Under the pieces are notes generated by a model that saw only the letters and a program-made list of their open reading frames with translations, made no database searches and was not told where the DNA came from. Positions 3,593-57,783 of a stretch of 64,000 bases of DNA are shown here, one piece after another (position 1 is the first letter of the stretch; every line of letters begins with the position of its first letter). The position numbers were made by a program, and so were the translations under genes. Where the stretch lies: positions 39,855-103,854 of the forward strand of contig CAVPLK010000002.1 in NCBI GenBank assembly GCA_963705985.1, written 5' to 3'. Source of the DNA: an uncultured Gemmatimonadales bacterium (GTDB taxonomy: Bacteria > Gemmatimonadota > Gemmatimonadetes > Gemmatimonadales > GWC2-71-9).

Positions 3593-3883
3593 TCAGTAGG
3601 CGCCCCGCGGCTGATGCGCGGGGTCCGCCATGGTGTGGACGACGGTCAGGAATCGCTTGCCGAGCTTGTCGAGTTCGCTCTCCCCGGGCTGGTCGGTCTC
3701 GACGGTGATCAGGGTGTAGTGCCCGCCTTCGGCCTGGACCGTGACTGTGACCTGGCCCAGCGTGCCGCCGAACCGGCGGCGGCGCGGAGCTTCCTCGATC
3801 GGGGTCAGCAGCGCGCCGAAGAATTCAGCTGCGCGGCCAACGGCGGCGTCGGGGGAGACGCTGGTGCGGTGGAAGTACTTCAT
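3593..3883 (-). CDS. Hypothetical small protein (96 aa) translationally coupled to the inositol-phosphate synthase gene
   Basis: High GC3 ORF whose ATG overlaps the upstream stop (TGATG). I recognise no family. Confidence 0.5.
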   Translation of the reverse strand: MKYFHRTSVSPDAAVGRAAEFFGALLTPIEEAPRRRRFGGTLGQVTVTVQAEGGHYTLITVETDQPGESELDKLGKRFLTVVHTMADPAHQPRGAY

Positions 3884-26288: not shown

Positions 26289-26312
26289 CGGCGCTCCCTC
26301 CTTCGGGCGGCG

Positions 26313-36809: not shown

Positions 36810-39238
36810 ATGCGGTCTCCCCTCCGCCGCTTCACCGTCCTGCGGCCCTGCTCCCTCGCCCTCGCCGCCAGTCTCGCCTGCATTCCCGCCGCAGCCGTCG
36901 GCCAGTCCATCGGCGCCTACACGCCGCCGGTCCAGTGGCCGGAGCGGCCGCCGCGGTTCGACCTCGTCAACCAGCGCATCGAGCTGAGCGTCGACTGGGC
37001 GCGGCTGGCCATCACCGGCAGGGTGACCACGCTCGTGACGCTCACCACGGTCACCGACACCGTGCGGCTCGACGCCGACCATCTGACCATCACCGGCGCC
37101 ACCGACGCGACCGGACGCAAGCTCCGCTTCCAGGCGGATTCGACCCACGTGACGGTCAGGCTCCCGCGGCGCATGCAGCCCGGCGACGCGGCCGAGTTCA
37201 CGCTGACCTACACCGGCGTCCCCGAGCGCGGCCTCTACTTCGTGCCGCGGAGCCACGTGGTCTGGACCCAGGGCGAGGCGATCGAGACCCGGAGCTGGGT
37301 CCCGACCTACGACTTCCCCAATGACAAGGCGACCTGGGAGTTCCTGGTGACCGCCGACTCCGGGCATGTCGGTCCTCTCCAACGGCACGCTGAAGGACGT
37401 GACGCCGGCGGCCGGGGGGCCGGCAGGTCTGGCACTGGGTGCAGGAGCAGCCCGCCTCCACCTATCTCTATTCGGTCGTCATCGGGCCGTTCACCGTGCT
37501 CCGTGACCAGTGGCGCGGCCGCCCGGTCGACTACTGGGTGGCGCCGGACACGGTGCCCGCCGGCTGGCGCACCTTCGGCGAGACGCCGTCGATGATCGAG
37601 ATCTACTCCCAGGTGCTCGGCGTCAACTACCCCTGGCCCAAGTACAGCCAATCGGTCATTCCCGACTTCACCTACGGTGGAATGGAAAACGTCTCGGCCA
37701 CGACGCAGACCGACCAGGTCCTGCACGGCGCCGAGGGGGAGCCGGAGGAGAGCGGCCGCGGCCTGGCCGCCCACGAGCTGGCCCACCAGTGGTTCGGCGA
37801 CTACACCACCACCGCCACCTGGTCGCACGCCTGGCTCAACGAGGGATTGACCACCTACATGGAGTCGGTGCAGAACGAGAAGAGCCGCGGGTGGCCGGCC
37901 GGTCAGCGGTCGTGGTACAGCCAGCAGCAGCAGGCGATGCGCGCCGATCTCCGGCAGGAGCGCCCGCTGGTCTGGGGCGACACGCTGGCCGACCCGATCC
38001 AGCTCTTCTTCAGCGGGCACATCTACCCGAAGGGTGCCCAGGTGGCGCACCAGCTCCGCCGGTTGCTCGGTGATTCGCTCTTCTGGGGCGGCATGCAGCG
38101 CTTCCTGGTGGACAACGCCTACCAGCCGGTCCGGACCGAGGATTTCGCGGTCGCGTTCGAGCAGACCGCCAATCGCGACCTCGACTGGTTCTTCGACCAG
38201 TGGGTGTACGGCATCGGGTACCCGAAGGTGAACGTGACGCGGCACTGGGATGCGGCGGCAAGGCAGCTGCACGTCACCGTCACCCAGACCCAGAAGATCG
38301 ACTCCACCCATCCCCTCTTCCGCTTCCCAGTCACCATCCGGCTGATCACCCCCGACTCGGTGCTGCGGAAGGAGATCATGGTGACGAAGCAGGCGGAGAC
38401 CTTCACGCTCCCGGTCTCGCAGCAGCCGCTCTCGTTCCGGTTCGACGAGGGGGCATGGCTGCTCGGTACGGTGGCCACCGACCAGACGCCCACCGAGTTG
38501 TCCGACATGGCGAAGCACGATCTGGACTACGGCGCGCGGAACTGGGCGCTCCGGGCGCTGGCCGGGAACACCACGCCGGTGGCCGACAGCGCGCGGCGGT
38601 TCATCGTGTTGAATGAGCGAGAGGCCGCGCTGCGCGAGATCGCGCTGGCACAACTCGCCGAGCGGAAGGACACGGCGGACCTGCCGCTGATCCAGTCGGC
38701 GCTGCGCGACCCGCCAGCGGCGTGCGCGGCGGCGCCATCGAGGCGTGGGCCGCCTTCGACTCCCTGACCGTCCAGTGGCAGGCGCGCCAGATGCTGCTGA
38801 CCGACCCCAACTCGGCGGTCCGGCAGGCGGCGATCGGCGTCCTCAACCCTGCCGACCTCGAGGTCCGCACGCTGCTGACGACCAGCACGGAGCCGAAGTG
38901 GCCGCTGGGCATCCGCCAGTCGGCGGCCTACCAGATCCGGAACCAGGACGATCCGGCGGTCGTGGCGGCGCTGATCGCGCTCACCGATCCCTCGAACCCG
39001 CGCAACCTGCGGCAGGCGGGGCTTCGCTACCTGGCCGGGCGGAGCGACAAGGCGCCGGCCATCGCCACAGCCACCACGTACCTCAGCGATCCCGATCCGC
39101 TCTTCGCGGTGAGCGCCGTGCAGACGCTGGCGCGGGTCGGCGGTGCCGGCCGGCACGGCCACCCTGACGCAGCGGCTCAAGGTGGAAAAGCGGGTGACGG
39201 TCGATGACGCGATTCGTGGAGCGCTGACGTCGAAATAA
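36810..39238 (+). pseudogene. M1-family aminopeptidase (aminopeptidase N-like) with C-terminal HEAT/ARM repeats; four frame changes as sequenced
   Basis: Signal peptide MRSPLRRFTVLRPCSLALAASLA. The exopeptidase motif YGGMENV and the zinc site HELAHQWFGD...WLNEGLT are present. Frame path is 3 > 1 (about 37365) > 2 (G6 run 37414-37420) > 1 (about 38717-38722) > 2 (about 39151), ending at TAA 39236-39238. Confidence 0.8.
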
Positions 39239-40982: not shown

Positions 40983-43900
40983 TCACCTCACGCGCACCTC
41001 GATGACGGTGGTCGCCAGCGCGAGGGGCTTGTATCCCGCAATGTGCTGGAAGAACCAGGGACGGCGCAACTGGCCACGCGCGTTGGCCTCCGCCACCTCC
41101 GCTCCGGAGAGGTCGGCCAGGTCGTTTCCGTCGTCCCACATCGGCGTCCCCACCGCCCAGTTGGTCCCCGACGCGATCCACCGGGCATCGGTCTCGGCGG
41201 CGAACGACAGCACCAGATGGTACTCACCCGGGGTGTCCGGCCCGCGGAGGGCGAGCGTGTGGCGTGAGACGGCTTCCACGGCCGGCGTCGCGAGGGCGGA
41301 GACGGTGAGGTAGCTCTCGCGCTTGTCGCCCCAGCTCGGGAAGGCACCGAGAATGACCGAGGCGGCCGGCCAGTAGGCGGAGTAGCGAAGCGTGACCTCC
41401 CCCCGAATCATCTCCCCCGGCTGCACCATGAGCTGCCGATGCTCCGGGAGGAGCGTCTGCCCGTTCAGGTCCGCGCGGTCGAGCCAGAGGGTGGCGCCGC
41501 CGGGCGGATCGAGCACGACGGTGACTGCGTCCAGCCCCTTGGCCGAGAATCGAAGCTGCGTTCCCCCCGGCGCGGACGCGCCGAGCGCGACGCGATTGAA
41601 CGTCGCCAGCCCGTCCACCGCCGTGACCGAGGTGGATCCGACGACTCGCGCGGAATCACCCACGGCCTCGACCAGCACGTCGATGCTCCTGTTGCGCACC
41701 CGTCGGCCCGAGCCGTCCTGAATTTCCACGATGGGAACTGGAACCAGCGCGGACTGGTTGCCGGAAATCGGCGCCTGCAAGACGACCAGGCGCGCCGGAC
41801 GGTCGGCGCCCTGGTTCGCGAGCACCGCCAGGGCGGAGACCACCAGGAGCCCGGCCCCCGCGGCGCTCCACCGCCTGGGGCGAGTGTCGAGTCCCAGCCG
41901 CCGATGAACCGGCCGCACCCGCAGCACCCGGCGGAGGCGATCCGACGTGCCCGCACTCCCGAGCAGCGCCCGCGCGAGCTCCATGTCACTCCGCGGATCG
42001 CGCCTCCGATGCGCCGACGCCAGCCATCGACGGTAGAGGGGGGCGAGCGTTTCCTCCGCTCCCCCGTGGATCAGCAACTCGGCGGCGCGCTGATGGTCGA
42101 AGGGCGAGATCGACGGCTCGAGGACGAGCGCGACGCCGAGCCGGCGGGCGAGGTCGTGCACGGCCTCCGGCGTGGCGTCCTGGAGGGCGACCTCGGCCAG
42201 CTCGTCGTGCCCCAGGCGCCAGCGGTCCTCGACGAGCGCGACGAAGCCGCGGAGTTCGAGCGAAGCGAGGAGGGCGGCCACCTCCTCCTCGGGCAGGATC
42301 GCCGCCCAGGCGAGGACTCGCGCGCCCATCGGGGCGGCGGCGGTCGCGAGGAGCGAGAGGAGCAGCCGCGAACGCGCCTCGAGCGCTTCCACGCGTCGGC
42401 GAAGCGCGTCTCCTGCCGGGAGTTCCGCCGCAATGCGGCCGGGGTCCGCGCAACTCCACCCGCGATCGTCGAGCCCCAGCCACCCCCGGTCGAGCGCCAG
42501 TTGCAGGCTCTCGAGGATCAGGTGCGGCGATCCCGCGGAGGCGCCGTGGAGTCGATCGACCAGCAGCGACGACCATGCTGCGTCGGGCAGGGCACCGACG
42601 CTCATGACCAGCGCCTCGACCTGGGCCGCCGTCAGGGCCGCCAGCGCGAGGGTCTCGGCGTCGGCCTCGATCGATTCCATGCCCCGGACCGGCCGCCCGG
42701 CCGTCACCACCAGCATCCTCGAACCGGTCGCCCTGGCGCAGAGCCCGGCGAGGACCTGCAGCGACTCGCGATCCATCCAGTGGACATCGTCGAGCAGGAG
42801 CGCCAGCGGGGCTTCCTCGCTCAGCGCCAGCAGCAGGTCGGAGAGCGCGAGGGTGCGGCGACGGAGCGCCTCCGCCCCCTCGCTGGTGTCGGCGGTTCCC
42901 TGGAATCCGGTGGCCAGCGAGGGATCGAGCGCCTGGAGGGTGGCGAGCGCGGTCGGTGACACCCCCGAGGCGCCGGGGAGCACGAGGAGCGCACGGGCGA
43001 GCTCGGCGGCGAAGACGTAGGCGATCTGGCGGGACCCCGGCGGGGCGCGCAGGTAGAGGATTCGCCCGCCCATGGCGCGGAGCCGGCGTTCGGCGTCGCG
43101 CAGGAGGCGGGTCTTGCCGATTCCGGCGGGCGCGGAGAGGTGCAGGTGCCCCCCCTGCCCGGCACGGGTGCGCTCCCACGCCTGCGTGATCCGACGAAAC
43201 TCCCCCTCCCGTCCGATCAGTTCCCCGGTCAGCACGGTGGACGCCGATCGCGTCGCGGCGGGAGGCATCGCGCGAACCCGCGCCAGGAACGGCACTGTTT
43301 GCGCTTCGGGATCGCGCCGCTCCTCGAGGAGCATCGTCTCCAGCGCATCGGCCTCGATCCCGGCGCCGATCGGGTCGCCGGCGAGCAACAGGGTGTCGAG
43401 CAAGAACCTCCACACCGCCTCGTTGGACGGGTCGGCGTCCCGGTGCTGGCGGGCCAGCGCGATCGCTTCCCGCACCGCACCGCGGTCCAGGCGCTCCCGG
43501 GCGAGGGCGTCGAGCGCGCGCATCCAGCCGGAGCGCAGACGATCCCTCGTCTTGTCGGCCCAGTGCTCAAACCCCGCGCCCCCCGGGACGCCGAACTCGC
43601 CGAGGAAGTCTCCCTGGTAGCGGCGGACCGCCTCCTCAAAGCGGGACGCGCGCAGCGCGTCCCCCACCTCGGCATAGTCGGAGACGAGGGGGAGCCGAAG
43701 GGTGAGCTGTTCCCCCTCACCGGCAAGGGTGGACTCGCCGAGCTTGCTTCGGATCTGCCAGATGGCCTGCCTGAGAGACTGACGGGCGCGTTCCAGGTCG
43801 GCATCGGTCCAGAGGAGGTCGGTCAGGTGCACCCGGCTTGCCGTCCGACCGGCGGCCATGGTCAGGTAGATGATGATGGCGAGCGGCTTGCCGGGGCCGA

Positions 43901-44000
43901 AGATCAACGTCTCCTCGCCCCCCTCCCCGACCTGGACAAGGCGTGGCATGGGTCCAAGCGTTCTGAGACGAAGGTCGGCGTCCGGCAATTCGGCTGTCAT
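40983..44000 (-). CDS. Membrane-anchored SARP-type regulator: OmpR-like winged helix + BTAD + AAA/STAND ATPase + helical region + TM segment + extracytoplasmic Ig-like and C-terminal domains
   Basis: wHTH/BTAD region (LHLTDLLW...ARQSLRQAIWQIR; YQGDFLGEF...ADPSNEAVWRFLLDTLLLAGD), Walker A APAGIGKTRLL, Walker B LALLLDDVHWMD, a TM segment WSAAGAGLLVVSALAVLA, then an Ig-like unit (VPVPIVEIQDGSGRRV...VDGLATFNRVALG). The start is set at ATG 44000 (the track ORF starts at 44159). Confidence 0.75.
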   Translation of the reverse strand: MTAELPDADLRLRTLGPMPRLVQVGEGGEETLIFGPGKPLAIIIYLTMAAGRTASRVHLTDLLWTDADLERARQSLRQAIWQIRSKLGESTLAGEGEQLTLRLPLVSDYAEVGDALRASRFEEAVRRYQGDFLGEFGVPGGAGFEHWADKTRDRLRSGWMRALDALARERLDRGAVREAIALARQHRDADPSNEAVWRFLLDTLLLAGDPIGAGIEADALETMLLEERRDPEAQTVPFLARVRAMPPAATRSASTVLTGELIGREGEFRRITQAWERTRAGQGGHLHLSAPAGIGKTRLLRDAERRLRAMGGRILYLRAPPGSRQIAYVFAAELARALLVLPGASGVSPTALATLQALDPSLATGFQGTADTSEGAEALRRRTLALSDLLLALSEEAPLALLLDDVHWMDRESLQVLAGLCARATGSRMLVVTAGRPVRGMESIEADAETLALAALTAAQVEALVMSVGALPDAAWSSLLVDRLHGASAGSPHLILESLQLALDRGWLGLDDRGWSCADPGRIAAELPAGDALRRRVEALEARSRLLLSLLATAAAPMGARVLAWAAILPEEEVAALLASLELRGFVALVEDRWRLGHDELAEVALQDATPEAVHDLARRLGVALVLEPSISPFDHQRAAELLIHGGAEETLAPLYRRWLASAHRRRDPRSDMELARALLGSAGTSDRLRRVLRVRPVHRRLGLDTRPRRWSAAGAGLLVVSALAVLANQGADRPARLVVLQAPISGNQSALVPVPIVEIQDGSGRRVRNRSIDVLVEAVGDSARVVGSTSVTAVDGLATFNRVALGASAPGGTQLRFSAKGLDAVTVVLDPPGGATLWLDRADLNGQTLLPEHRQLMVQPGEMIRGEVTLRYSAYWPAASVILGAFPSWGDKRESYLTVSALATPAVEAVSRHTLALRGPDTPGEYHLVLSFAAETDARWIASGTNWAVGTPMWDDGNDLADLSGAEVAEANARGQLRRPWFFQHIAGYKPLALATTVIEVRVR

Positions 44001-44082: not shown

Positions 44083-44104
44083 GGGGGATTGACGGGGGAT
44101 TGAC
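44083..44104 (+). promoter_or_regulatory. Two perfect tandem 11-bp direct repeats GGGGGATTGAC in the divergent promoter region (candidate SARP operator)
   Basis: GGGGGATTGAC (44083-44093) is followed directly by GGGGGATTGAC (44094-44104), then a degenerate third unit GGCGGGGTGCT and a TAnnnT hexamer TAGCGT at 44115-20. This lies 67 nt upstream of the 44171 ATG. Confidence 0.45.
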
Positions 44105-44170
44105 GGCGGGGTGCTAGCGTGGACGGACTCACTGCCACGCCGCCCGGGGCGGCCTTCAAGGAGTTCGGTC

Positions 44171-46009
44171 ATGCCGCGATTGCCGATGCACCTGCTGGTG
44201 CTTGGGGTCACCGCCCTGCTCACTGCCGTCGCCGGCTGCGACTCGACCGCCCCGTACGAGCCAGCGACCAGACTGGGATTCTCCCAGCAACCGACCCCGA
44301 CGACGGCGGGAGCGGTCGTGTCCCCCGCGGTCACGGTCTCCGTCCTCACGGCGGGGGGAGACCGGTCCACCGGATCTTCCGTCACCATCACCGTGGCCAT
44401 CACGGTGGGCACCGGTGCGGCCGGGGCCATCCTGGGAGGCACGACCACGAGGACGGCGGTCAACGGGGTCGCGACCTTCAACGATCTCACGCTCGACAAG
44501 GCGGGAACCGGGTACACCATCACGGCCACGAGCAGCACCCTGACAGCGGCCACCAGCACGGGCTTCGCGGTGACGGCAGGGGCGGCGAGCGCCTTGACCT
44601 TTCGCACGCAGCCCGCGACGGCCGAGGCCGGGGTACCGATTTCGCCGGCCGTCGAGGTGCAGGCGCTGGATGCGTACGGCAATCCCGCCTCGGGCAACGT
44701 CACCATCGCCATCGCCCCAGGCACCGGGGCGGCCGGCGCCGTCCTCGGCGGCACGCTCACGAAACCGACGGCGAACGGGATCGCCACCTTCGATGATCTC
44801 ACGGTGGACAAGGCGGCGGGTGGGTATACGCTCGCGGCAACAGGGGCGGCTGCGCCCACGGCGACCAGCGACCTCTTCGGCGTGATGGCCGGCCCGCCCG
44901 CCGTGCTTATTGCGCTGGCGGGGGATGGTCAGTCGGCACCCGTCGGCACTGCACCACCTGTCATGCCCTCTGTCGAGGTTCGCGACCAGTTCGGCAATCT
45001 CGTTCCGAGTGCCGCCGTCGTGTTTACGGTCACCCAGGGGAGCGGCATCATCATCGATACCTTTCATGTGACCGGCGCGGACGGGCGCGCCACCCTCGGA
45101 GGCTGGGAGGTGGACGGGCTCGGCATCAACCGGGTGACCGCGCTCACCGCCGGCGGCGCGATAACGACCCCCTTCACCGCCACCGCCAGCAATTTGAGTT
45201 TTGCCTATACGCCGGATGTCATCGGCGGAGGCTGGACGCTCTGGGCGGCCAATGAGGACACCATTTTTGTCGGGGGCGGATTCCAGTTGCTGCGGTACTT
45301 CAATGGCACCACCTGGAGCAGCATGACCTCGGCGCTGGGAGCCAACACCTACGGGATCTGCGGGCGCGCCAGTACTGACGTCTACACCACCGGGCAATGG
45401 GGCGTCCAGCACTACGCCGGCACGAGCTGGGCCTCAATTCTGGGCGGAACAGACGAGATCATCGACTGCTGGGCCGGGACGAGCACCGTCTATGCGGTCG
45501 GCGATGGCACGCTGCGGGTTTACGCGAACGGCAGCTGGACGAGCATTCCAACGGGGCTGTCCCAGGCCTTCAACGTGGACCGCCTCGAGCAGGTCTGGGG
45601 CACCGGGACTGGTGTGGTCTACGCCGCCGGCAGGCCGGGCGTGCTCAAGTATGACGGTGTGGCCGCGGCGCTCGTCCCCGGCCTCCCGGCGAACATGGTC
45701 GGCATCCACGGGAGCTCGGCCGATAACGTGTTCGCCGTCGGATCCAACGGCGCCATCTGGCGCTACGACGGCACCTCCTGGGCCCCGATGAACAGCGGCA
45801 CGACTGAAACCCTCACGGGCGTGGCCGCCTTGTCCCCCAAGAACGTCTATGTCGTCGGCAACACCGGACTCCTGCTTCGCTACGACGGCATCGATTGGCA
45901 GCCGGTCAGCACGGGAAACACCTCGGCCTGGTATTCGGAGATTCAGGCCCTTTCGGCGACCAGTCTTCTGATCACGGCCCCACCGGGCATGCTGGCGGGG
46001 AAACCATGA
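44171..46009 (+). CDS. Lipoprotein with three tandem Ig-like repeats and a C-terminal beta-propeller-like domain
   Basis: AAGGAG lies 8 nt upstream of the ATG. The signal and lipobox are MPRLPMHLLVLGVTALLTAVAGC. Three units of about 95 aa each end in GVATFNDLTLDKAG / GIATFDDLTVDKAA. Then come six blades with the pattern h-h-R-Y-D/N-G-x-x-W. Confidence 0.75.
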   Translation: MPRLPMHLLVLGVTALLTAVAGCDSTAPYEPATRLGFSQQPTPTTAGAVVSPAVTVSVLTAGGDRSTGSSVTITVAITVGTGAAGAILGGTTTRTAVNGVATFNDLTLDKAGTGYTITATSSTLTAATSTGFAVTAGAASALTFRTQPATAEAGVPISPAVEVQALDAYGNPASGNVTIAIAPGTGAAGAVLGGTLTKPTANGIATFDDLTVDKAAGGYTLAATGAAAPTATSDLFGVMAGPPAVLIALAGDGQSAPVGTAPPVMPSVEVRDQFGNLVPSAAVVFTVTQGSGIIIDTFHVTGADGRATLGGWEVDGLGINRVTALTAGGAITTPFTATASNLSFAYTPDVIGGGWTLWAANEDTIFVGGGFQLLRYFNGTTWSSMTSALGANTYGICGRASTDVYTTGQWGVQHYAGTSWASILGGTDEIIDCWAGTSTVYAVGDGTLRVYANGSWTSIPTGLSQAFNVDRLEQVWGTGTGVVYAAGRPGVLKYDGVAAALVPGLPANMVGIHGSSADNVFAVGSNGAIWRYDGTSWAPMNSGTTETLTGVAALSPKNVYVVGNTGLLLRYDGIDWQPVSTGNTSAWYSEIQALSATSLLITAPPGMLAGKP

Positions 46010-46425
46010 GCGAACCGTCGCCGAGGATGCAGAGCCCAGTCCTCTCGCCGCTTGAAGACACCGCCAAGGCCTCGCGTGACCATCTCGACGACTTCGCTGA
46101 TTCCGTACTGGTCACCACCTCCCCCGGCGTCAACCGCTTTCGGATCGAGCGGCAGGTCGGACAGGAGCGCATCGAGTTCGTGACCGAAGGGGGGCTGATC
46201 TCGGAATTCACCGCGGAGTTCTACAGCCTGCTCGGCCAGCGCACCGATGACACCCACGGCCCGCTCCGGTCCAAGCGCCACCCCGCCATCCGGGCGCTGA
46301 TGCTGCGCGCCGCGCGGCAGGGCGCCAACGCCGTCATCAATGTGGAGCTCGACTACGAGGGACATACGGGCGAGCGGGCGCGGTACGTCCTCAGCGGGAC
46401 GATGGTGGTCTTGGTACCGATGTAA
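46006..46425 (+). CDS. YbjQ/DUF74-family protein
   Basis: The ATG overlaps the upstream stop (ATGA). The C-terminal block RQGANAVINVELDYE...SGTMVVL is typical of the YbjQ fold family. Confidence 0.65.
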   Translation: MSEPSPRMQSPVLSPLEDTAKASRDHLDDFADSVLVTTSPGVNRFRIERQVGQERIEFVTEGGLISEFTAEFYSLLGQRTDDTHGPLRSKRHPAIRALMLRAARQGANAVINVELDYEGHTGERARYVLSGTMVVLVPM

Positions 46426-47166: not shown

Positions 47167-47249
47167 AATAGCATTCCCTCCCCGGCCGGATAAGTTACGA
47201 AGGTCGCACGCACCCCCCTGCATTTTCGCGGCGAATCGGAGACTAAATA

Positions 47250-49007
47250 GTGAGAGCACGCCCGATCATGGCTGTCGTCGTACTTCTGGCCGGAATCTCG
47301 GTGCACCCAGCCTCGGCCCAGGCCCCCTCTACCGGCTACCAGAACGCCGCCGCCCTCCAGAAGGCCATCGACCAACTGGGCCGGGACTATCGCAACGTGG
47401 TGACGCTGTCCACCGTGGCACAGTCGCCTGGCAAGCGGCCGGTCCGAGCAATACGCCTCGGCGCGGGCAACGATCCCGACGGCCGCCCCGCGCTGCTGGT
47501 GCTGGCCAACGCGTTCGGGCCCCACGTCGTGGGGAGCGAGATGGCCATCCGGGTGGCCACGCAACTGGCCAACGGCTATGGCAAGGACAGCTCGGTCACC
47601 TCGCTCCTCAACACCCGCACCATCTATATCATCCCCCGCGTCAACCCGGACGCGGCCGAGGGATTTTTCCAAACCCCGCTCTATGAACGGATCCGGAACG
47701 ACGGCACCGCCGACGACGATCACGACTGGGAAGCGGACGAAGACGGCCCGGAGGACCTGAACGGCGACGGCCTGATCACCATGATGCGGGTGCGCGATCC
47801 GGCCGGAGAATGGATGGCCGACTCCGCCAACCCGGCACTGCTCCGTAAGGCCGACCGCGCCAAAGGCGAGATCGGCGTCTATCGCCTCTACACCGAGGGG
47901 CGCGACAACGACCACGACCAGGCCTGGAACGAGGACCCCGTCGGCAGCACCGCCGTCAGCGCCAACTTCACCTATCAATATGATTTCTTCGGCGACGCCA
48001 CCGGACTCTACCCGATGTCCGCGCCGGAAACAAAAGGCGTGGCCGACTTCTTCATTGCCCATCCTAACATCGCCGCCGTGTACGTCCTCGGCCCCCAGGA
48101 CAACCTGCTGACCCCGTGGAAGCACACGAGCGGCCGCGGGCTCGGTGGCAAGGACGAGGGCACCTCGGCGGGAGGGCCCTACACCAGCATCCTGGAGGCC
48201 GACCAGCCCTTCTTCGAGGAGATGGCCACCCGCTTCCAGGCCGCGACCGGACGGAAGGCCGGACCGGCCTCGGACGCGCTGAGCGGCGACCCCCTCTCGT
48301 GGGCCTATTTTTCCATGGGCCGCTGGGCGTTCGGCTCGCGTGCCTGGTGGATTCCCGAGACACCCGCGAAGGACACGACGGCGACGGACAGCCTCGCTCC
48401 GACAAAGGAGGCCAAGCCGGGCGACGGCAAGAAGACCGCCGCGTACCCCGACTCCCTCAAGGCGGAGTCGAACGCGTACCGCTGGGTCGCGGCGAACAAC
48501 GCACGCGGCTTCGTCGCCTGGACTCGCGTGGATCACCCCGATTTCCCGGGTCGCGAGGTGGAGATCGGGGGCTTCGCGCCGTTCGTCGGCATCAACCCGC
48601 CCGCCGCGATGCTCGACTCGCTCTCGCGCGGCCAGCTGACGTTCGTGACCGGCCTGGCCGGCGCCCTCCCGCGCGTCACCCTGCGCAACGCGCACGTCAC
48701 CCGGGTCGGCGATCGGACCTACCGGATCGAGGTCGAGGTGGCCAACGACGGGTACTTCCCGACGCTGGCCGCCATCGGCGTGAAAGCGTTCTGGCCGCGA
48801 CGCATTCGACTCGCGCTCGACAAGGGGAAGACGGAGATCGTCGGGGGTCGCGCCGTACAGCTGGTCGGGCCAATCCCCGGCAGCGGGGCGTCGGAGAAGT
48901 TCCGGTGGGTGGTGGTGGGGGACGCGGGGGCCACCGTAGACGATCACGGCCACGAGTCCGGTCGCGGGGTCCGCGTCCGAACCCCTGACGCTGCGTTGAG
49001 GCGATGA
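47250..49007 (+). CDS. M14-family carboxypeptidase-like protein (zinc-binding HxxE apparently not conserved)
   Basis: 585 aa with a signal peptide, paralogous to the next gene. Where the neighbour has IDGNIHANEIQGSE, this protein has VLANAFGPHVVGSE. Confidence 0.75.
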   Translation: MRARPIMAVVVLLAGISVHPASAQAPSTGYQNAAALQKAIDQLGRDYRNVVTLSTVAQSPGKRPVRAIRLGAGNDPDGRPALLVLANAFGPHVVGSEMAIRVATQLANGYGKDSSVTSLLNTRTIYIIPRVNPDAAEGFFQTPLYERIRNDGTADDDHDWEADEDGPEDLNGDGLITMMRVRDPAGEWMADSANPALLRKADRAKGEIGVYRLYTEGRDNDHDQAWNEDPVGSTAVSANFTYQYDFFGDATGLYPMSAPETKGVADFFIAHPNIAAVYVLGPQDNLLTPWKHTSGRGLGGKDEGTSAGGPYTSILEADQPFFEEMATRFQAATGRKAGPASDALSGDPLSWAYFSMGRWAFGSRAWWIPETPAKDTTATDSLAPTKEAKPGDGKKTAAYPDSLKAESNAYRWVAANNARGFVAWTRVDHPDFPGREVEIGGFAPFVGINPPAAMLDSLSRGQLTFVTGLAGALPRVTLRNAHVTRVGDRTYRIEVEVANDGYFPTLAAIGVKAFWPRRIRLALDKGKTEIVGGRAVQLVGPIPGSGASEKFRWVVVGDAGATVDDHGHESGRGVRVRTPDAALRR

Positions 49008-50782
49008 CCATGACGATCAGATACCGAGCCACCGCACTCGCGCTGACCCTTGCCGCCCTGACCCTTGCCGGCGCCGGACGCGCCGCGGCCCAGGATGTCC
49101 TGGCGGCGATGGGGTCGCCGCCGAACCCCAAGGTGGCCGTCTCCTGGGACCGGTACTACGACCACGCCGCCATCGGCGACATCGGACGCCGGCTCCAGAA
49201 GGCGTATCCCGACCGCTGCCGCCTCGGCTCCATCGGCACCTCCCACGGGGGCCGCGAACTGTGGCTCCTCACGGTCACCAACTTCACGACCGGCAATCCT
49301 GACGACAAGCCGGGGATGTACATCGACGGCAACATCCACGCGAACGAGATCCAGGGCTCCGAAATCTCGCTCTACACCGCCTGGTATCTCTGCGAAATGG
49401 CCGACCGGGTCCCGTGGGTGGACTCGCTGCTCGACGCGCGGGTGTTCTACATCGTGCCGACCATCAACCCCGACGGGCGCGACGACTTCATCCACAACCC
49501 CAACAATCCCAGTTCGCCGAGGGCCGGCATCGTCCCCCGCGACAGCGACGGCGACGGGGTGGTGGACGAAGACGCCTACGACGACCTCGACGGCGACGGC
49601 AGCATCACCCAGATGCGCCGCCGCAACCCGAACGGGCGGTGGATCACCTCCCCCGTGGATTCGCGCATCATGATCCGCGCCGACGCCGACCAGCCGGGCG
49701 AGTACGAACTGCTCGGCGAGGAGGGCATCGACAACGACGGCGATGGCCTCGTGAACGAGGACGGGGTCGCGTTCTCCTACGACCCGAACCGCAACTGGCC
49801 CTGGAACTGGCAGCCGCGGTACGTCCAGGGCGGTGCCGACTACTACCCGGGCTCGCTGCCGGAGACCCGCGCCGTCATGCAGTTCATCATCGGCCATCCC
49901 AACATTGCGGGCGTGCAGACCTACCACAATTCCGGCGGGATGATCCTGCGGGGCCCCGGCGTGCAGAGTGACGAGTACCAGGCCGCGGACATCGCGGTCT
50001 ACGACGCCATCGGCAAGGTCGGCGAGACCATCCTGCCGGGGTATCGCTACATCGTCATCTGGAGCGGGCTCTACACCACGTGGGGCAACGAACTGGACTG
50101 GACCTACGCCGGCCGCGGGATCATCAGTTACAGCAACGAACTGTGGACCCCGTTCAAGTACTTCGAAAAGCAGCCGGAGCGGGACAAGTACGACCGGCCG
50201 GAATACCAGTTCGACCGCCTGGTGCTCATGAAGGAGGCGGTGGTCCCGTGGACGCCGTACAACCATCCCCAGTACGGCCTGATCGAGATTGGCGGAGTCA
50301 AGAAGCAGTACACCCGGGCCATTCCCGGCTTCCTGCTCCCCGCCGAGGCGCACCGGAACATGGCCTTCACGCTCTATCAGGCGAGCCAGATGCCGCTGGT
50401 CACCGTGGACTCGATTGCCACGAAGGCACTGGGCGGCGGATTGACGGAGGTGACGGCCATCGTCGCGAACAAGCGGCTCGCGCCGACGCATGTGCAGCAG
50501 GACATCAAGAACCACATCACGCGCCCCGACTGGGTGACGATCGAGGGGGGCGAGGTGGTCGCGGGCTTCGTGGTCGAGGACCCGCTGTCGGGCCGGGCGC
50601 GCGAGCAGGAGCGCAACCCGCGCCGGATCGAGGTGGACAACATCCCCGGCATGGGAACGGCGGTGGTGCGGTGGGTGGTTCGGGGAAAGGGACCCTTCAC
50701 GGTGACGGTGGATTCGGAGAAGGGCGGGATTGGACGGCAGGGCAGCGGGGCAGCAGGGCAGCGGGGCAGCGAATCTCACTGA
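49004..50782 (+). CDS. M14-family zinc carboxypeptidase
   Basis: 592 aa with a signal peptide and the HxxE motif in IDGNIHANEIQGSE. The start is ATG 49004 (ATGA overlap) or ATG 49010. The last about 15 codons and the stop lie in the (GGGGCAGC)n repeat. Confidence 0.82.
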   Translation: MTMTIRYRATALALTLAALTLAGAGRAAAQDVLAAMGSPPNPKVAVSWDRYYDHAAIGDIGRRLQKAYPDRCRLGSIGTSHGGRELWLLTVTNFTTGNPDDKPGMYIDGNIHANEIQGSEISLYTAWYLCEMADRVPWVDSLLDARVFYIVPTINPDGRDDFIHNPNNPSSPRAGIVPRDSDGDGVVDEDAYDDLDGDGSITQMRRRNPNGRWITSPVDSRIMIRADADQPGEYELLGEEGIDNDGDGLVNEDGVAFSYDPNRNWPWNWQPRYVQGGADYYPGSLPETRAVMQFIIGHPNIAGVQTYHNSGGMILRGPGVQSDEYQAADIAVYDAIGKVGETILPGYRYIVIWSGLYTTWGNELDWTYAGRGIISYSNELWTPFKYFEKQPERDKYDRPEYQFDRLVLMKEAVVPWTPYNHPQYGLIEIGGVKKQYTRAIPGFLLPAEAHRNMAFTLYQASQMPLVTVDSIATKALGGGLTEVTAIVANKRLAPTHVQQDIKNHITRPDWVTIEGGEVVAGFVVEDPLSGRAREQERNPRRIEVDNIPGMGTAVVRWVVRGKGPFTVTVDSEKGGIGRQGSGAAGQRGSESH

Positions 50783-50834
50783 ACGTCACCCCGGCGAAAG
50801 CAGGAGCGTCACCCCCGCGAAGGCCGGGGTCCAG
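50736..50834. repeat. Composite repeat: (GGGCAGC)n tract, a truncated hairpin module and a complete one
   Basis: 50736-50770 reads GGCAGGGCAGCGGGGCAGCAGGGCAGCGGGGCAGC. GTCACCCCGGCGAAAGC (truncated) is at 50785-50801, and GTCACCCCCGCGAAGGCCGGGGTCCAG is at 50808-50834. Confidence 0.85.
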
Positions 50835-50874
50835 GGCCAACGAAGCAATCTCACCACATCGAAAGGGAGCAATC

Positions 50875-51321
50875 ATGACTGGGTCACAGGCAGGCACGAC
50901 CGGCAAGATGCCCTGGCACTTCTGGGTGATCGGCGTCCTGGGGACGCTCTGGAACGCCTTCGGGTCCCTCGACTATTACATGACGGAAAGTCGCAACGAG
51001 GCGTGGTTGAGCGCGGCCCCGCCCGCCCAGCTGGAGTTCATCTATGCGGCGCCGAGCTGGGTGGTGGCGATGTGGGCCATCGGAGTCTGGGGTGGCCTGG
51101 TGGGATGCCTGCTCCTGCTGCTCCGGAAGGGGGCCGCCGTGCCGGTGCTCCTCGCCTCCCTGGTCGGCGCGACACTCCTCTTCGTCCACAACTTTCTCCT
51201 CTCCACCGGCCTCGAGGTCTCGGGCACGGGTGGGGCCGTCTTCGCCGTGTTCATCATCGCGGTCGCGTTCGGGCTGTGGTGGTACGCGCGGGGGTTGAAG
51301 CAGAAGGGGATGCTGGTCTAA
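50875..51321 (+). CDS. Hypothetical membrane protein (4 TM segments)
   Basis: GGGAG lies upstream of the ATG at 50875. 148 aa with hydrophobic segments and high GC3. The remainder of the 413-aa track ORF is read-through of the repeat and an antisense shadow. Confidence 0.65.
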   Translation: MTGSQAGTTGKMPWHFWVIGVLGTLWNAFGSLDYYMTESRNEAWLSAAPPAQLEFIYAAPSWVVAMWAIGVWGGLVGCLLLLLRKGAAVPVLLASLVGATLLFVHNFLLSTGLEVSGTGGAVFAVFIIAVAFGLWWYARGLKQKGMLV

Positions 51322-51438
51322 AGCGGGGAAGCGGACCGAAGATCGTTACCCCCGGCGAGGCGCGGCTGAAGCCGCGGCTCGGCTGATGTCGCTGAAGCGA
51401 CACGGGCAAGAGTCACCCCGGCGAAGGCCGGGGTCCAG
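51322..51438. repeat. Composite repeat: inverted copy of the double-hairpin unit plus GTCACCCCGGC gaag GCCGGGGTCCAG hairpin
   Basis: CGCGGC tgaa GCCGCG (51361-51376), GTCGC tgaa GCGAC (51388-51401), and a stem at 51416-51433. Confidence 0.85.
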
Positions 51439-51473
51439 TGCAGATGCATCGACCTCCCCTTGAGGAGTTTTTC

Positions 51474-53852
51474 ATGACTGATCGGTCCCGAGCCCTCCTG
51501 CTCGCCGCCTCGTTTGCGCTCACTCCGACCCTCGCGGCATCCGCGTCGGCGCAGGAGGTCCTGCCCTTTCCGCCGAAGCCCTCCGGCAGCACGGCCGGGA
51601 TCACGATGCAACAGTCACGGTACAGCCCGCTGCCGCCGGAGAACCACCTGCCGGCGGGCGCCCCGAACATCCTGATCATCCTGATCGACGATGTTGGGCC
51701 GGCCCAGAACGACACCTATGGCGGCGCGATTCACACGCCCACGCTGAGCAGGATCGCCGCCGAAGGGATTTCCTACAACCGGTTTCACACCACCGCCATG
51801 TGTTCCCCGACGCGGGCCGCGCTGTTGACCGGCCGCAACCAGCATCGGGTCCACAGCGGCCAGATCACCGAGCTGGCCAACGACTGGGACGGCTACATGG
51901 GGGTCATCCCGAAGTCGAGCGCCACGGTGGCCGAGGTGCTCAGGAACTACGGCTATCACACCGGCGCGTGGGGGAAGTGGCACAATTCGCCGGCCGAACA
52001 GACCACGCAGGCTGGCCCCTTCGACTACTGGCCCACCGGCTACGGCTTCGAATACTTCTACGGCTTCCTCGCGGGCGAGGCCTCGCAGTACGAGCCGATG
52101 ATGGTGCGCAACACCACCTACGTCGAGCATCCCCACACCTCCGGGGGACATGAATACTACCAGCTGAGCGAGGACCTGGCCGACGACGCCATCTCCTGGC
52201 TGCGGCAGCACAAGGCCCTCGCTCCCACCAAGCCCTTCTTCATGTACTGGGCCACCGGCGCGTCGCACGGCCCGCACCAGGTCCCCGCGGCCTGGGCCGA
52301 CAAGTACGCCGGCAAGTTCGACGACGGCTGGGACGCCTATCGGGCGCGCGCCTACGAAGGGGCCAAGCGGAAGGGGTGGATTCCGGCCAACGCCCAGCTG
52401 ACGCCGCGCCCGGCCACCCTCGCCTCGTGGGCCTCCATCCCCGAGAGCCAGAAGCCGTTTCAGCGCCGGCTCATGGAGGTGTTTGCCGGCTTCACGGAGC
52501 ATGCCGACGTCCAGGCGGGGCGGGTGGTGGACGAGATCGACCAGCTGGGCTACGGCGACAACACGCTGATCTTCTACATCTGGGGCGACAACGGCGCCTC
52601 GGCCGAGGGGCAGAACGGCACCATCAGCGAACTGCTCGCGCAGAACGGCATCCCGAGCACCACGGAGCAGCAGATCAAGGCCCTCGACGGTCTGGGCGGC
52701 CTGAGCGCGCTGGGCACGCCCAAGACCGACAACATGTACCACGCCGGCTGGGCCTGGGCGGGGAGCGCGCCATACAAGTACACCAAGCTGATCGCGTCCC
52801 ACTTCGGCGGCACCCGCAATCCGATGGCGGTGCGCTGGCCGGCGCGGATCCAGGCCGACCCGACACCCCGCGCGCAGTTCCTGCACGTCAACGATGTGGT
52901 GCCGACGATCTACGACCTTGTCGGCATCACGCCACCAAGGGTCGTCAACGGCATCCCGCAGGACCGGTTCGACGGCGTGAGCTTCGAGGCGAGCTTCGGC
53001 GACGCCACGGCCAGGGTCGGGAAGCCCACACAATACTTCGAGGTGATGGGCAGCCGGTCGATCTATCACGACGGATGGATCGCCTCGGCGTTCGGCCCGC
53101 GCTCGCCCTGGATTCCCGGATTGCCCCCGGGGATCGCGAACTGGGACCCCGAGAAGGACACCTGGGAGCTCTACAACCTCGACGACGACTGGTCGCAAGC
53201 GAACGACCTGGCGGCCAGGATGCCGGACAAGCTCCAGGAGATGAAGGACTTGTTCCTGGTCGAGTTCGCCCAGAATAGCGGGCTCCCCGTCGGCGGCGGG
53301 CTGTGGGTCATGGCGTTTCACCCTGAGCTGCGGCTGGTTCCGCCGTACACCTCGTGGACCTTCCCCGGCGCCATCACGCGGATGCCGGAGGTCGCCGCAC
53401 CGGCGTTGGGCAACAAGCCGAACACCGTCCGCATAACCGCCGATATCCCCCCCAATGCGAACGGCGTCCTCTACGCGCTGGGCGGTTTCTCGGGCGGCCT
53501 CGCGCTATATGTGCAGGATGGCGCGCTGTCCTACGAGTACAATCTCTTCGCAATGACCCGCACCCACATCCGGGGGGACGGCACGCTCCCCACCGGACGG
53601 GTCACGATCGAGGTGGTCACGTCGTATGTGGAACGGAAGCCGGCCGGACCGCTGCGGATCGTGCTGAGGGTCAACGGGCGGGAGGTCGGATCGGGCGTCG
53701 TCCCGGTCAGCGCTCCGCTGGCGTTCACCGCGAATGATGCCCTGGACTTCGGTATTGATCTCGGCTCGCCAGTCAGCATCGACTACTATGACCGGGCACC
53801 ATTCAAGTTCACTGGCACGATTGCCGGGGCGACGGTGGAGTATGCACGGTAG
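51474..53852 (+). CDS. Arylsulfatase (Cys-type, formylglycine-dependent)
   Basis: The sulfatase signature CSPTRAALLTGRN is present. The signal peptide MTDRSRALLLAASFALTPTLAASASAQ follows GAGGAG. About 790 aa uninterrupted. Confidence 0.9.
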   Translation: MTDRSRALLLAASFALTPTLAASASAQEVLPFPPKPSGSTAGITMQQSRYSPLPPENHLPAGAPNILIILIDDVGPAQNDTYGGAIHTPTLSRIAAEGISYNRFHTTAMCSPTRAALLTGRNQHRVHSGQITELANDWDGYMGVIPKSSATVAEVLRNYGYHTGAWGKWHNSPAEQTTQAGPFDYWPTGYGFEYFYGFLAGEASQYEPMMVRNTTYVEHPHTSGGHEYYQLSEDLADDAISWLRQHKALAPTKPFFMYWATGASHGPHQVPAAWADKYAGKFDDGWDAYRARAYEGAKRKGWIPANAQLTPRPATLASWASIPESQKPFQRRLMEVFAGFTEHADVQAGRVVDEIDQLGYGDNTLIFYIWGDNGASAEGQNGTISELLAQNGIPSTTEQQIKALDGLGGLSALGTPKTDNMYHAGWAWAGSAPYKYTKLIASHFGGTRNPMAVRWPARIQADPTPRAQFLHVNDVVPTIYDLVGITPPRVVNGIPQDRFDGVSFEASFGDATARVGKPTQYFEVMGSRSIYHDGWIASAFGPRSPWIPGLPPGIANWDPEKDTWELYNLDDDWSQANDLAARMPDKLQEMKDLFLVEFAQNSGLPVGGGLWVMAFHPELRLVPPYTSWTFPGAITRMPEVAAPALGNKPNTVRITADIPPNANGVLYALGGFSGGLALYVQDGALSYEYNLFAMTRTHIRGDGTLPTGRVTIEVVTSYVERKPAGPLRIVLRVNGREVGSGVVPVSAPLAFTANDALDFGIDLGSPVSIDYYDRAPFKFTGTIAGATVEYAR

Positions 53853-54925: not shown

Positions 54926-56116
54926 TCAGTTGTTCCAGTCGTCGCCCGGCATGATCCGCCGCATGAACTCGTCGAAGAGCGGCACCGTAAAGGCGGTGTC
55001 GCCGTGGGCCGGGCTGTAAATCATCCCCTTGGCAATCAGGGAACTGCGGATGGGGCCGAGCGCGGTCACTCGCCGCTCGAGGATGTCGGCGATGTCCCCC
55101 GACCGATGGGGACCCGCACCCAGTTCCGACATCGCGCGGAGGTAACGCTTTTCCGACGGGGTCAGCCGGTCGAACCGCACCCGGAAGAAGCTCTCGTCCA
55201 GCGCCGCCACCGCGGACCGGGACGCCCTGGCCACGTCGTCCGCGGTGATCGGCGACGCGTCTGCGACGTCCCAGGCATGCTTGCCCCATTCCTGCACGAA
55301 GTACGGATAGCCCCGGGTTTCCTTCGCGATGCGATCGAGCGCCTCCGGCGTCACCACCACCCCCTGCTCCAGCGCCGGCTTGGCGATCGCGCTCCTCGAG
55401 GCGGCCTCGGTGAGCGGCCCGACCTCGGGGAAATCGAACAGCCGCTCGGCGTATGACTTGGCCCGCCCCATCCGGCCGCGGAGCTGCGGCAGGCCCGCCC
55501 CGACCAGCACCACCGGGAGCCGGCGCTGCGCGGTCCGGTGCAGCGCCGTGATGAGGGCCTCGAGCTGTGTCTCGGGGACGTACTGCAGTTCATCCACAAA
55601 CATCGCCAGGGCGGTGTCCCCAGCCTGGGCGGCCTCGCCCGCCACCTCGAGAAGCGCCTGCAGGTCGTGCTCAAGGTCGCCGTTGTCGGCAAGGCCGGGT
55701 TCCGGCTCGAAATCGAAACCGACCTCGATGTCGGAAAATTTCAGCTTCAGCCCCTTGGCAAAACCAGCCAGGCCACGCAGCGCGCGCACCGCCAGGTCCC
55801 TGGCCTTGGCACTGTGCGACAGGCGCAGGAGACCCTGGCGCAGTTGCGGCGCCAGGATGGCGGGGAGCGAGCGATTTTCCGGCGCCTCCACCCGCAGGGT
55901 CTGGATGCCGGCGGCCTCGGCGTCGTCCCGCATCTGGTCGAGGAGGACGGTCTTCCCCACCCCCCGGAGCCCAACCATCAGGACGCTCTTGGTGGGCAGC
56001 CCGCGCCGCACCCGGGCGAGCGCGATCCGGACCGTCTCAAGCAGGTCATCCCGACCGGCAAGCTCGGGAGGCGGGGCTCCGGCGCCAGGAGCGAAGGGGT
56101 TGGAGACAGGATCCAT
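54926..56116 (-). CDS. AAA/STAND-like ATP-binding protein with C-terminal winged-helix region
   Basis: N-terminal NPFAPGAGAPPPELAGRDDLL, Walker A GLRGVGKTVLL, Walker B AMFVDELQYV, and a C-terminal LTPSEKRYLRAMSELG. Confidence 0.8.
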   Translation of the reverse strand: MDPVSNPFAPGAGAPPPELAGRDDLLETVRIALARVRRGLPTKSVLMVGLRGVGKTVLLDQMRDDAEAAGIQTLRVEAPENRSLPAILAPQLRQGLLRLSHSAKARDLAVRALRGLAGFAKGLKLKFSDIEVGFDFEPEPGLADNGDLEHDLQALLEVAGEAAQAGDTALAMFVDELQYVPETQLEALITALHRTAQRRLPVVLVGAGLPQLRGRMGRAKSYAERLFDFPEVGPLTEAASRSAIAKPALEQGVVVTPEALDRIAKETRGYPYFVQEWGKHAWDVADASPITADDVARASRSAVAALDESFFRVRFDRLTPSEKRYLRAMSELGAGPHRSGDIADILERRVTALGPIRSSLIAKGMIYSPAHGDTAFTVPLFDEFMRRIMPGDDWNN

Positions 56117-56121
56117 GCGCC

Positions 56122-56150
56122 ATTATAGTGAGTTTAGTCAGTTTATGCAA
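56122..56150 (-). promoter_or_regulatory. Near-consensus sigma70-type promoter placed for a leaderless transcript of the ATPase gene
   Basis: The minus strand reads TTGCAT (56150-56145), a 17-nt spacer, TATAAT (56127-56122), then GGCGC and the ATG (56116). It sits in a strikingly AT-rich patch of about 65 bp. Confidence 0.55.
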
Positions 56151-57713: not shown

Positions 57714-57783
57714 GATCCCTCCCTGGTCGAGTGCCGGCCGCGGTCCGCAACGGCATGGCCACACGATCGGAAGGTGGCGTCAA

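Follow-up and report, generated by a model that had tools for sequence, protein, structure and literature searches.

The 64,000-nucleotide stretch of DNA analysed here, from an uncultured Gemmatimonadales bacterium (contig CAVPLK010000002.1; referred to below as the window), carries on its minus strand a gene of 1005 codons whose product joins a SARP-like DNA-binding module, a STAND nucleoside triphosphatase (NTPase), a predicted transmembrane (TM) helix, an Ig-like unit and a second beta-sandwich, which we call the X domain. We consider it likely that this protein is a single-pass transmembrane one-component transcription activator, oriented N-in/C-out, with the SARP and AAA_16 STAND modules inside and the Ig-like and X domains outside, and that it probably switches on neighbouring envelope genes. 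The gene and the parts of its product are as follows.

40983..44000, minus strand: whole gene of the SARP-STAND-TM-Ig-X protein, 1005 codons plus stop (open reading frame and translation).
43701..43976, minus strand: OmpR-type winged-helix DNA-binding domain, residues ~9-100 (Trans_reg_C and ortholog profile).
43251..43688, minus strand: BTAD helical activation domain, residues ~105-250 (Pfam BTAD and AfsR alignment).
42705..43223, minus strand: P-loop core of the STAND NTPase (AAA_16, residues 260-432); Walker A, GIGKT, spans 293-297 and Walker B, LLLDD, 401-405.
41871..42704, minus strand: helical and winged-helix domains of the STAND module, then a short helical arm with an Arg-rich juxtamembrane end, residues 433-710 (R436-P437, GxP with G490 and P492, MHD-like H598-D599).
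41817..41870, minus strand: predicted single TM helix, residues 711-728, N-in/C-out (hydropathy, charge-free alignment window and charge bias).
41505..41798, minus strand: Ig-like beta-sandwich, residues ~735-832, predicted to be extracytoplasmic (AlphaFold2 model and profile matches).
40986..41504, minus strand: X domain, a beta-sandwich of ~170 residues that includes a helical insert, residues 833-1005 (AlphaFold2 model and invariant E..TNW..WxDGND).

The frame is intact from the ATG at 44000 to the stop at 40983-40985, and its GC content by codon position (0.76/0.53/0.86) is as expected of genuine coding sequence in a genome of about 70% GC. Two other starts were considered, a TTG upstream at 44159 and the internal Met18, which is used in the database entry P0001 and which would remove the first winged-helix strand, LRLRTLGP. 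The N-termini of the orthologs align with the ATG at 44000 and keep this strand, and on these grounds ATG 44000 is the likely start. Since the preliminary description of the locus had left room for two genes, we surveyed the architecture in GTDB representative genomes and found that a stop-to-stop frame of 1000-1100 codons runs through the SARP, AAA, helical, TM, (Ig) and X regions in about 24 Gemmatimonadota species; these unbroken frames over all modules rule out two separate genes and establish a single open reading frame.

The N-terminus had been described as SARP-like, that is, an OmpR-type winged helix followed by BTAD, and the domain searches bore this out. BTAD (PF03704) matched residues 117-208 with an E-value of 1.5e-7 and 32.3 bits, passing its cut-off of 22.1; it was detected in 19 of the 23 orthologs and lies directly behind the winged helix. 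For the winged helix itself, the Pfam model Trans_reg_C reached only an E-value of 6e-4 and 20.3 bits at residues 39-90 of the window protein, below its cut-off of 26.2, which counts against the assignment, but the same model was detected in 20 of the 23 orthologs, with a best E-value of 4e-8. When the cytoplasmic 710 residues were compared with the PDB by phmmer no match was obtained, and AfsR was reached by the ortholog profile only. This profile matched AfsR (8k60) with an E-value of 3e-8 over AfsR residues 22-349, covering winged helix, BTAD and P-loop, so that, among solved structures, AfsR is the closest relative of the first 300 residues, and the profile also matched the winged helix of ToxR (8b4c) with an E-value of 2.7e-3.

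The P-loop STAND/AAA module, which had been recognized by the strings APAGIGKTRLL (residues 290-300) and LLLDDVHWMD (residues 401-410), was recovered by the Pfam model AAA_16 with an E-value of 8e-22 at residues 260-432 and in all 23 orthologs, and thus all three of the domains sought in the cytoplasmic half (Trans_reg_C, BTAD and AAA_16) were found, Trans_reg_C sub-threshold. The NTPase region of the NCBIfam model TOMM_kin_cyc also matched, at an E-value of 1.9e-14. Eight residues, G293, G295, K296, D405, P437, G490, P492 and H598, are invariant in the 23 orthologs, and at D404, R436 and D599 conservation reaches 90% or more; judged by these conserved motifs, the STAND module looks competent as a nucleotide switch. 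Behind the core, the ortholog profile matched the MalT-like STAND protein PH0952 (6mfv; E-value 2e-3) at positions 402-624, which correspond to the helical and winged-helix region, and weak MarR-type winged-helix matches fell at residues 523-595. H598-D599 stands opposite the HD motif of AfsR in a second segment of the AfsR alignment, which is itself weak and non-significant. The helical arm that links the winged-helix domain to the TM helix is about 100 residues long. The window protein has no TPR sensor domain and no NB-ARC match, TPR matches being present in 2 of the 23 orthologs and NB-ARC in one of them as a weak match, and neither Pfam nor NCBIfam gave a match to a GerE/LuxR helix-turn-helix in it. 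The likeness to AfsR-like regulators drawn in the preliminary description therefore holds for the order of a STAND core and then a helical region, but not for the kind of NTPase, which is AAA_16 and not NB-ARC, nor for a TPR part. By sequence the NTPase belongs to the AAA_16, MalT/LAL-like clade and, because it is not of the NB-ARC type and no long TPR sensor follows it, the cytoplasmic half appears nearer to the SARP-LAL regulators than to AfsR. PADLOC returned no match for the window regulator, which makes a known anti-phage STAND system unlikely.

The hydrophobic segment WSAAGAGLLVVSALAVLA occupies residues 711-728 and leaves 277 residues behind it. It had been called a clear TM segment about 300 residues from the end; the hydrophobic span and its place stand, but "clear" was an overstatement, since in the window protein the segment is Ala/Gly-rich and marginal, with a mean Kyte-Doolittle hydropathy of 1.67 and a simple Hessa-scale sum of +3.0 kcal/mol. 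This marginality speaks against a membrane-spanning protein; the predicted topology was derived from hydropathy, flanking charge and domain company. The family-level evidence is much stronger than the hydrophobicity of the window segment by itself. In the alignment of the 23 orthologs, residues 711-727 form the sole 17-column window without any charged residue, and the mean hydropathy of this window, 2.05, is the highest among the windows listed; the sequence of the segment drifts among orthologs with its hydrophobic character retained, and Kyte-Doolittle means rise to 2.9 in relatives. An equivalent uncharged hydrophobic 17-mer is present at residues 640-800 in 113 of the 116 homologues of at least 950 amino acids. 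Eight arginines lie within the 20 residues preceding the segment in the window protein (691-710) and two follow it, and over the 113 homologues the mean number of Lys plus Arg per 15 flanking residues is 3.95 on the N-terminal side and 1.81 on the C-terminal side, the N-terminal side being the richer in 94 homologues and the poorer in 4. Taken over the family, the segment thus bears the predicted signature of an N-in/C-out signal anchor.

AlphaFold2, run with the ortholog alignment on the last 277 residues, gave a confident model (predicted local distance difference test, pLDDT, 93.4) of an Ig-like sandwich followed by a second beta-sandwich, and the X domain modelled by itself reached a pLDDT of 94.8, in agreement with the earlier suggestion of a further beta-rich domain after the Ig unit. 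No Pfam or NCBIfam model covers either of these domains. How widely they occur depended on the search: with the C-terminus alone as query, a word-indexed search gave 7 fragments and an exhaustive profile search gave 8961 proteins. Giant proteins 2-7 thousand residues long carry 10-57 repeats of the Ig unit, and of 11 giant or large Ig-repeat proteins inspected, 5 open with a lipobox and most others look N-terminally truncated. Tandem arrays of 3-6 X domains are present in classic signal-peptide proteins, beside BACON, PKD and CarboxypepD_reg modules, in many bacteria and in methanogenic and related archaea (Methanocella, Methanomassiliicoccales, Methanophagales); examples are P0142, P0143, P0195, P0272 and P0127, and the loci L029-L055. 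The preliminary description had assigned the Ig unit to the same type as those of the neighbouring lipoprotein, and indeed the Ig-unit profile matches that lipoprotein three times, with independent E-values of 5e-9, 5e-6 and 0.03. Both outer domains are thus otherwise met in signal-peptide or lipobox proteins and, together with the positive-inside bias, this exported company supports the predicted N-in/C-out orientation and points to an extracytoplasmic location of the C-terminal domains. Elsewhere in the window, a minus-strand lipoprotein gene (56244-57779) encodes one Ig unit matched by the same profile and then an RCC1 propeller; the adjoining gene (54929-56122, minus strand) encodes a 398-residue AAA_16/nSTAND1-type ATPase with no SARP domain and no PADLOC match.

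A reading in which the hydrophobic stretch is not inserted, so that the protein is wholly cytoplasmic and its C-terminal sandwiches are a STAND sensor working inside the cell, can draw on the marginal hydrophobicity of the window ortholog, on the cytoplasmic segment 546-564, which scores equally on the Kyte-Doolittle scale, and on the existence of cytoplasmic proteins with Ig-like sandwiches. We hold it to be very improbable, since the segment is free of charge in every one of the 23 orthologs, the positive-inside bias is strong and consistent and the segment is clearly hydrophobic in many relatives; moreover, X-domain proteins that are not regulators and whose N-terminus looks complete mostly start with a signal peptide, several Ig-unit proteins have a lipobox, and the PD40 repeats that replace these domains in the paralogues described next are of the TolB type, which in TolB are periplasmic.

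About 20 full-length orthologs were found, with 33-71% identity, all from Gemmatimonadota metagenomes or metagenome-assembled genomes (MAGs). Where relatives have a database name at all it is "DNA-binding SARP family transcriptional activator" or "AAA family ATPase", and hundreds of Gemmatimonadota homologues stand in the databases under such names only. Some genomes hold two loci of this architecture (L015/L052 and L040/L049). In addition, more than 100 paralogues, about 1340 residues long, have the cytoplasmic 70% and the hydrophobic span in common with the window protein and then continue into Tricorn_N/PD40 propellers, sometimes with Big_2; as judged from these sequences, the family keeps its cytoplasmic chassis and varies the outer module. 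A 573-residue relative, P0259 (L057, 847-2568), has SARP, TM, Ig and X regions without the STAND NTPase and is present on one 2.6-kb contig only.

The exchange of the outer half bears on what this half does. Its domains might be non-sensing and serve to anchor or localise the protein, for example by docking to the Ig-unit lipoproteins of the envelope, with the signal read by the cytoplasmic STAND module and its arm. The Ig unit and the X domain otherwise build large surface or adhesin-like proteins and are not known ligand sensors, and the STAND-less P0259 retains TM, Ig and X. Foldseek likewise found only generic sandwiches for the outer domains, the best PDB match of the X domain being CARDB 3idu (E-value 5e-4, target-normalised TM-score 0.51), so that the modelled X fold, in resembling generic sandwiches only, names no ligand; this is a point for the anchoring role and against a sensory one. 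We nevertheless regard an anchoring role as quite unlikely, because the paralogues keep the cytoplasmic half and swap the outer half for Tricorn/PD40 modules, as would be expected of sensor modules, and because the cytoplasmic arm past the winged-helix domain is far shorter than STAND sensor arms. Moreover, the invariant surface-loop motif of the X domain suggests a binding site: its residues E936, N947, W948, W955, G958 and D960 cluster in the loop and helix insert, which we take as a candidate ligand or metal site.

We next turn to the DNA that the regulator would act on, where the following features lie on the opposite strand.

44089..44106, plus strand: candidate operator TTGACGG-gggA-TTGACGG with an 11-bp period (heptamers at 44089-44095 and 44100-44106).
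44115..44120, plus strand: -10-like hexamer TAGCGT, 8 nt (cggggtgc) past the 3' repeat and facing the lipoprotein gene.
44171..46009, plus strand: divergent lipoprotein gene, 612 amino acids, lipobox LTAVAGC, three Ig units and propeller-like repeats; the predicted target.
46006..46425, plus strand: YbjQ_1-family gene (Pfam YbjQ_1, E-value 7.6e-12).

The intergenic region between regulator and lipoprotein genes measures 170 bp, and the tandem-repeat block is its best conserved part in a comparison of five orthologous loci. The layout of heptamer, 4 nt, heptamer, 8 nt and hexamer is kept in the window and in L002, L003, L005, L006 and L057 (the P0259 locus), and the hexamers at the same offset in five loci read TAGCGT, TAGACT, TACCGT, TACCGT and CAGATT. 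In promoters under SARP control, direct repeats stand 11 (or 22) bp apart and the 3' repeat lies 8 bp from the -10 element (PMC10936776); the window element matches this geometry, with its 11-bp period and 8 nt to the hexamer. By our own count the upstream heptamer is 20 nt from the hexamer, which seems to equal the extended spacing of the afsS promoter as judged from the coordinates in PMC10936776 (-35 at -38 to -33). No sigma-70 consensus promoter was found in the intergenic region. A loosened pattern gave 13 matches in the 9.0 kb upstream of 24 family genes and 6 in the remaining 257 kb, an enrichment of about 60-fold, and 8 of the matching loci, 7 of them with the element facing the regulator gene, lie outside the set that defined the pattern, where about 0.17 would be expected by chance, as estimated from the match density in the flanking 257 kb. 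In the close orthologs the element points away from the regulator gene, in more distant members towards it. Together, this is good circumstantial evidence for the predicted classical mode of DNA binding by the SARP module, with the adjacent envelope genes as targets.

Several observations weigh against that prediction. The pattern was derived from five loci that are themselves counted, and the tandem motif is missing from about half of the family loci. At the loci of PD40-type paralogues, the tandem element is present in L058 and absent upstream of L059 and L060; as one of three such loci has it, we do not extend the element to the superfamily as a whole. TTGACGG also resembles a -35 hexamer (TTGACG), and it could be bound by another factor or belong to an unusual promoter. 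Furthermore, the divergent target varies: three loci have YbjQ, L006 has a LamG lipoprotein, and the window and L057 have Ig- or Big-like lipoproteins. Separately, one loose-pattern match in the window, at 26311-26327, falls where two genes meet, lacks a -10-like hexamer and was put down to chance. The PD40/Tricorn paralogue loci L058 (~3870-3920) and L059 (~3855-3920) have in common another upstream block, CCTTGC[CT]GACC ... TA[AC]CTT ... GAGTGCGACCC, which looks like a promoter of their own with a 5' leader, distinct from the tandem-repeat element.

In L001/L005, L002 and L003 the YbjQ_1-family gene is the divergent neighbour with no intervening lipoprotein, the element faces the LamG lipoprotein in L006 and a Big-like lipoprotein in L057, and we accordingly rejected the neighbouring lipoprotein as a fixed partner of the regulator: orthologous loci have YbjQ in its position, with lipoproteins recurring in L006 and L057. 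In L002, L003 and L005 the YbjQ start codon follows the -10-like hexamer by 10-12 nt, which suggests that these mRNAs are leaderless or near-leaderless; in the distant family members L016 and L019 the start of the regulator gene is likewise close behind the hexamer. In the window, a Shine-Dalgarno sequence, AAGGAG, precedes the ATG of the lipoprotein gene at 44171 by 7 nt. Because the lipoprotein stop and the YbjQ_1 start overlap in ATGA at 46006-46009, the two genes probably form one operon, and the overlap suggests translational coupling.

The genes of the neighbourhood encode peptidases, a sulfatase, transporters, lipoproteins and YbjQ, and no biosynthetic genes lie nearby. On the plus strand, 47247-53849 holds two adjoining M14 carboxypeptidase genes and then a sulfatase gene. 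Also on the plus strand, an M1 aminopeptidase at 36846-39144 is split over three frames (36846-37364, 37424-38710 and 38710-39144), whose products are 71-90% identical to the intact 805-amino-acid ortholog in L001; this is either a pseudogene or the result of assembly indel errors, and since such errors are possible, the remaining frames of the window call for caution.

STAND proteins usually carry a TPR, WD40 or LRR sensor, and in the mechanism that we propose this sensor would be replaced by the short helical arm, one membrane helix, the Ig-like spacer and the X domain. Anchored in the inner membrane, the protein would have residues 1-710 in the cytoplasm. A ligand from the envelope or from outside the cell would bind the X domain and alter the self-association of the single-pass protein, and this would in turn allow the STAND module to swap its ADP for ATP and to oligomerise, in the manner of MalT and AfsR. 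A pair of SARP domains would then come to lie next to each other on the tandem repeats TTGACGG (44089-44106) and would bring RNA polymerase to a promoter whose -35 element is missing or unusable, whereby the divergent lipoprotein-YbjQ operon would be transcribed. Activation would take place from the membrane, with the protein staying anchored, as in ToxR and CadC. How the protein sits in the membrane, that it binds DNA, in which direction it regulates, what signal it reads and what ATP does are inferred from sequence and models. In its widest form the proposal, which we put forward as tentative, is that the Gemmatimonadota turned a STAND/NLR switch into a transmembrane receptor, in which an outer module (Ig plus X in the window protein, a Tricorn/PD40 propeller in the more than 100 paralogues) stands in for the cytoplasmic repeat sensor, an outside ligand drives nucleotide-dependent oligomerisation via a single helix and SARP dimers, assembled on tandem TTGACGG repeats, activate adjacent envelope genes from the membrane.

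Activation by proteolysis would be another way to work such a protein: a signal peptidase or a site-1/site-2 protease would cut near the helix, the freed SARP-STAND part would be a soluble activator and the membrane form its inactive store. The pattern of small residues at the end of the helix does fit signal peptidase (AVLA/NQ, with the slash at the cut; VIA/N, VAA/D and FVA/N in orthologs), and proteolytic release of membrane-tethered factors is common. Soluble SARP-LAL regulators, furthermore, function without a membrane anchor (PMC10972967). We judge this reading unlikely, given that no conserved protease gene lies beside the regulator, that regulators of the ToxR/CadC type operate at the membrane and that the STAND switch already provides an activation mechanism.

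If the anchored, ligand-gated receptor is real, it would constitute a signalling family apart from two-component systems, pairs of extracytoplasmic function (ECF) sigma and anti-sigma factors and simple regulators of the ToxR type, as well as the first example of an NLR-type switch that is controlled from the outside. STAND/NLR switches are regarded as intracellular sensors; a sensor across the membrane would pose the question of how a single helix gates ADP/ATP exchange and oligomerisation, for which this protein would be a compact test system. Gemmatimonadota are common in soils and, to our knowledge, their signalling has been little studied; the family, expanded in this phylum with interchangeable outer modules, may be one of its main environmental readouts. 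The predicted operator offers a concrete experimental handle, and the X domain is a widespread extracellular module of bacteria and methanogenic archaea without a family name. In addition, a SARP module, seemingly together with its promoter geometry, would here serve envelope-related genes outside the actinobacteria.

This last point sets the window protein apart from the usual definition of SARPs. In a recent review they are described as exclusive to actinobacteria and tied to antibiotic or secondary-metabolite clusters (PMC10972967), whereas the close relatives of the window protein all come from Gemmatimonadota MAGs and it has no secondary-metabolite cluster. Its nearest likeness among known SARPs is to the SARP-LAL regulators of Streptomyces (PimR, SanG, FilR and PteR), which, by the definition of their class, likewise have a SARP followed by a LAL/cyclase-type P-loop NTPase (AAA_16) and no LuxR helix-turn-helix, and which bind heptamer direct repeats spaced 11 bp apart and overlapping the -35 (PMC10972967). 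SARP-LAL proteins, however, are soluble, actinobacterial and encoded in antibiotic clusters, and the window protein is from Gemmatimonadota, lies in no biosynthetic cluster and has a predicted membrane helix with 277 outer residues. AfsR (8k60, 8jke, 8hvr) also combines a SARP module with a STAND/NLR-like switch, and its dimer sits on two 11-bp repeats; it has NB-ARC and a long cytoplasmic TPR part where the window protein has AAA_16, a TM helix and outer domains. By its sequence, then, the window protein is no large SARP of the AfsR type, the likeness being limited to the SARP module and the P-loop.

MalT and PH0952 (6mfv) belong to the same AAA_16 clade, PH0952 being the protein matched by the profile over the helical and winged-helix region. 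In MalT, the ligand relieves autoinhibition and ATP-dependent oligomerisation follows, and it is from this logic that the proposed mechanism is drawn. MalT has a C-terminal LuxR helix-turn-helix and a cytoplasmic repeat-arm sensor, whereas the window protein has an N-terminal SARP and a presumed sensor across the membrane.

The preliminary description had called a membrane-tethered SARP-STAND protein an architecture not known as described, and our literature search for a TM-anchored SARP-STAND architecture found no explicit description of one. The general class is known, however. Transmembrane transcription regulators (TTRs) are widespread, and a census of 2023 counted BTAD in 213, AAA_16 in 34, NACHT in 134 and PD40 in 321 of these proteins (PMC10269533). 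The text of this census does not discuss BTAD- or STAND-bearing membrane regulators, which stand in its tables only, and among the entries listed in an excerpt of its single-pass list Gemmatimonas aurantiaca appears only with an AsnC-type entry (PMC10269533). Membrane-anchored SARP-like and STAND-bearing regulators are thus already catalogued as a broad class, and the present design is common in the Gemmatimonadota yet, in the literature searched, undescribed.

Within that class, the ToxR/CadC TTRs share with the window protein an OmpR-type winged helix in the N-terminal cytoplasmic part, a membrane crossing by one helix and an outside domain at the C-terminus, the latter two being predicted in our case. 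The classical members of that group have their helix soon after the DNA-binding domain, and we know of none with an NTPase. The window protein differs from them in placing about 600 residues of BTAD and STAND between the winged helix and the membrane, in carrying other outer domains and in having a SARP-style tandem operator.

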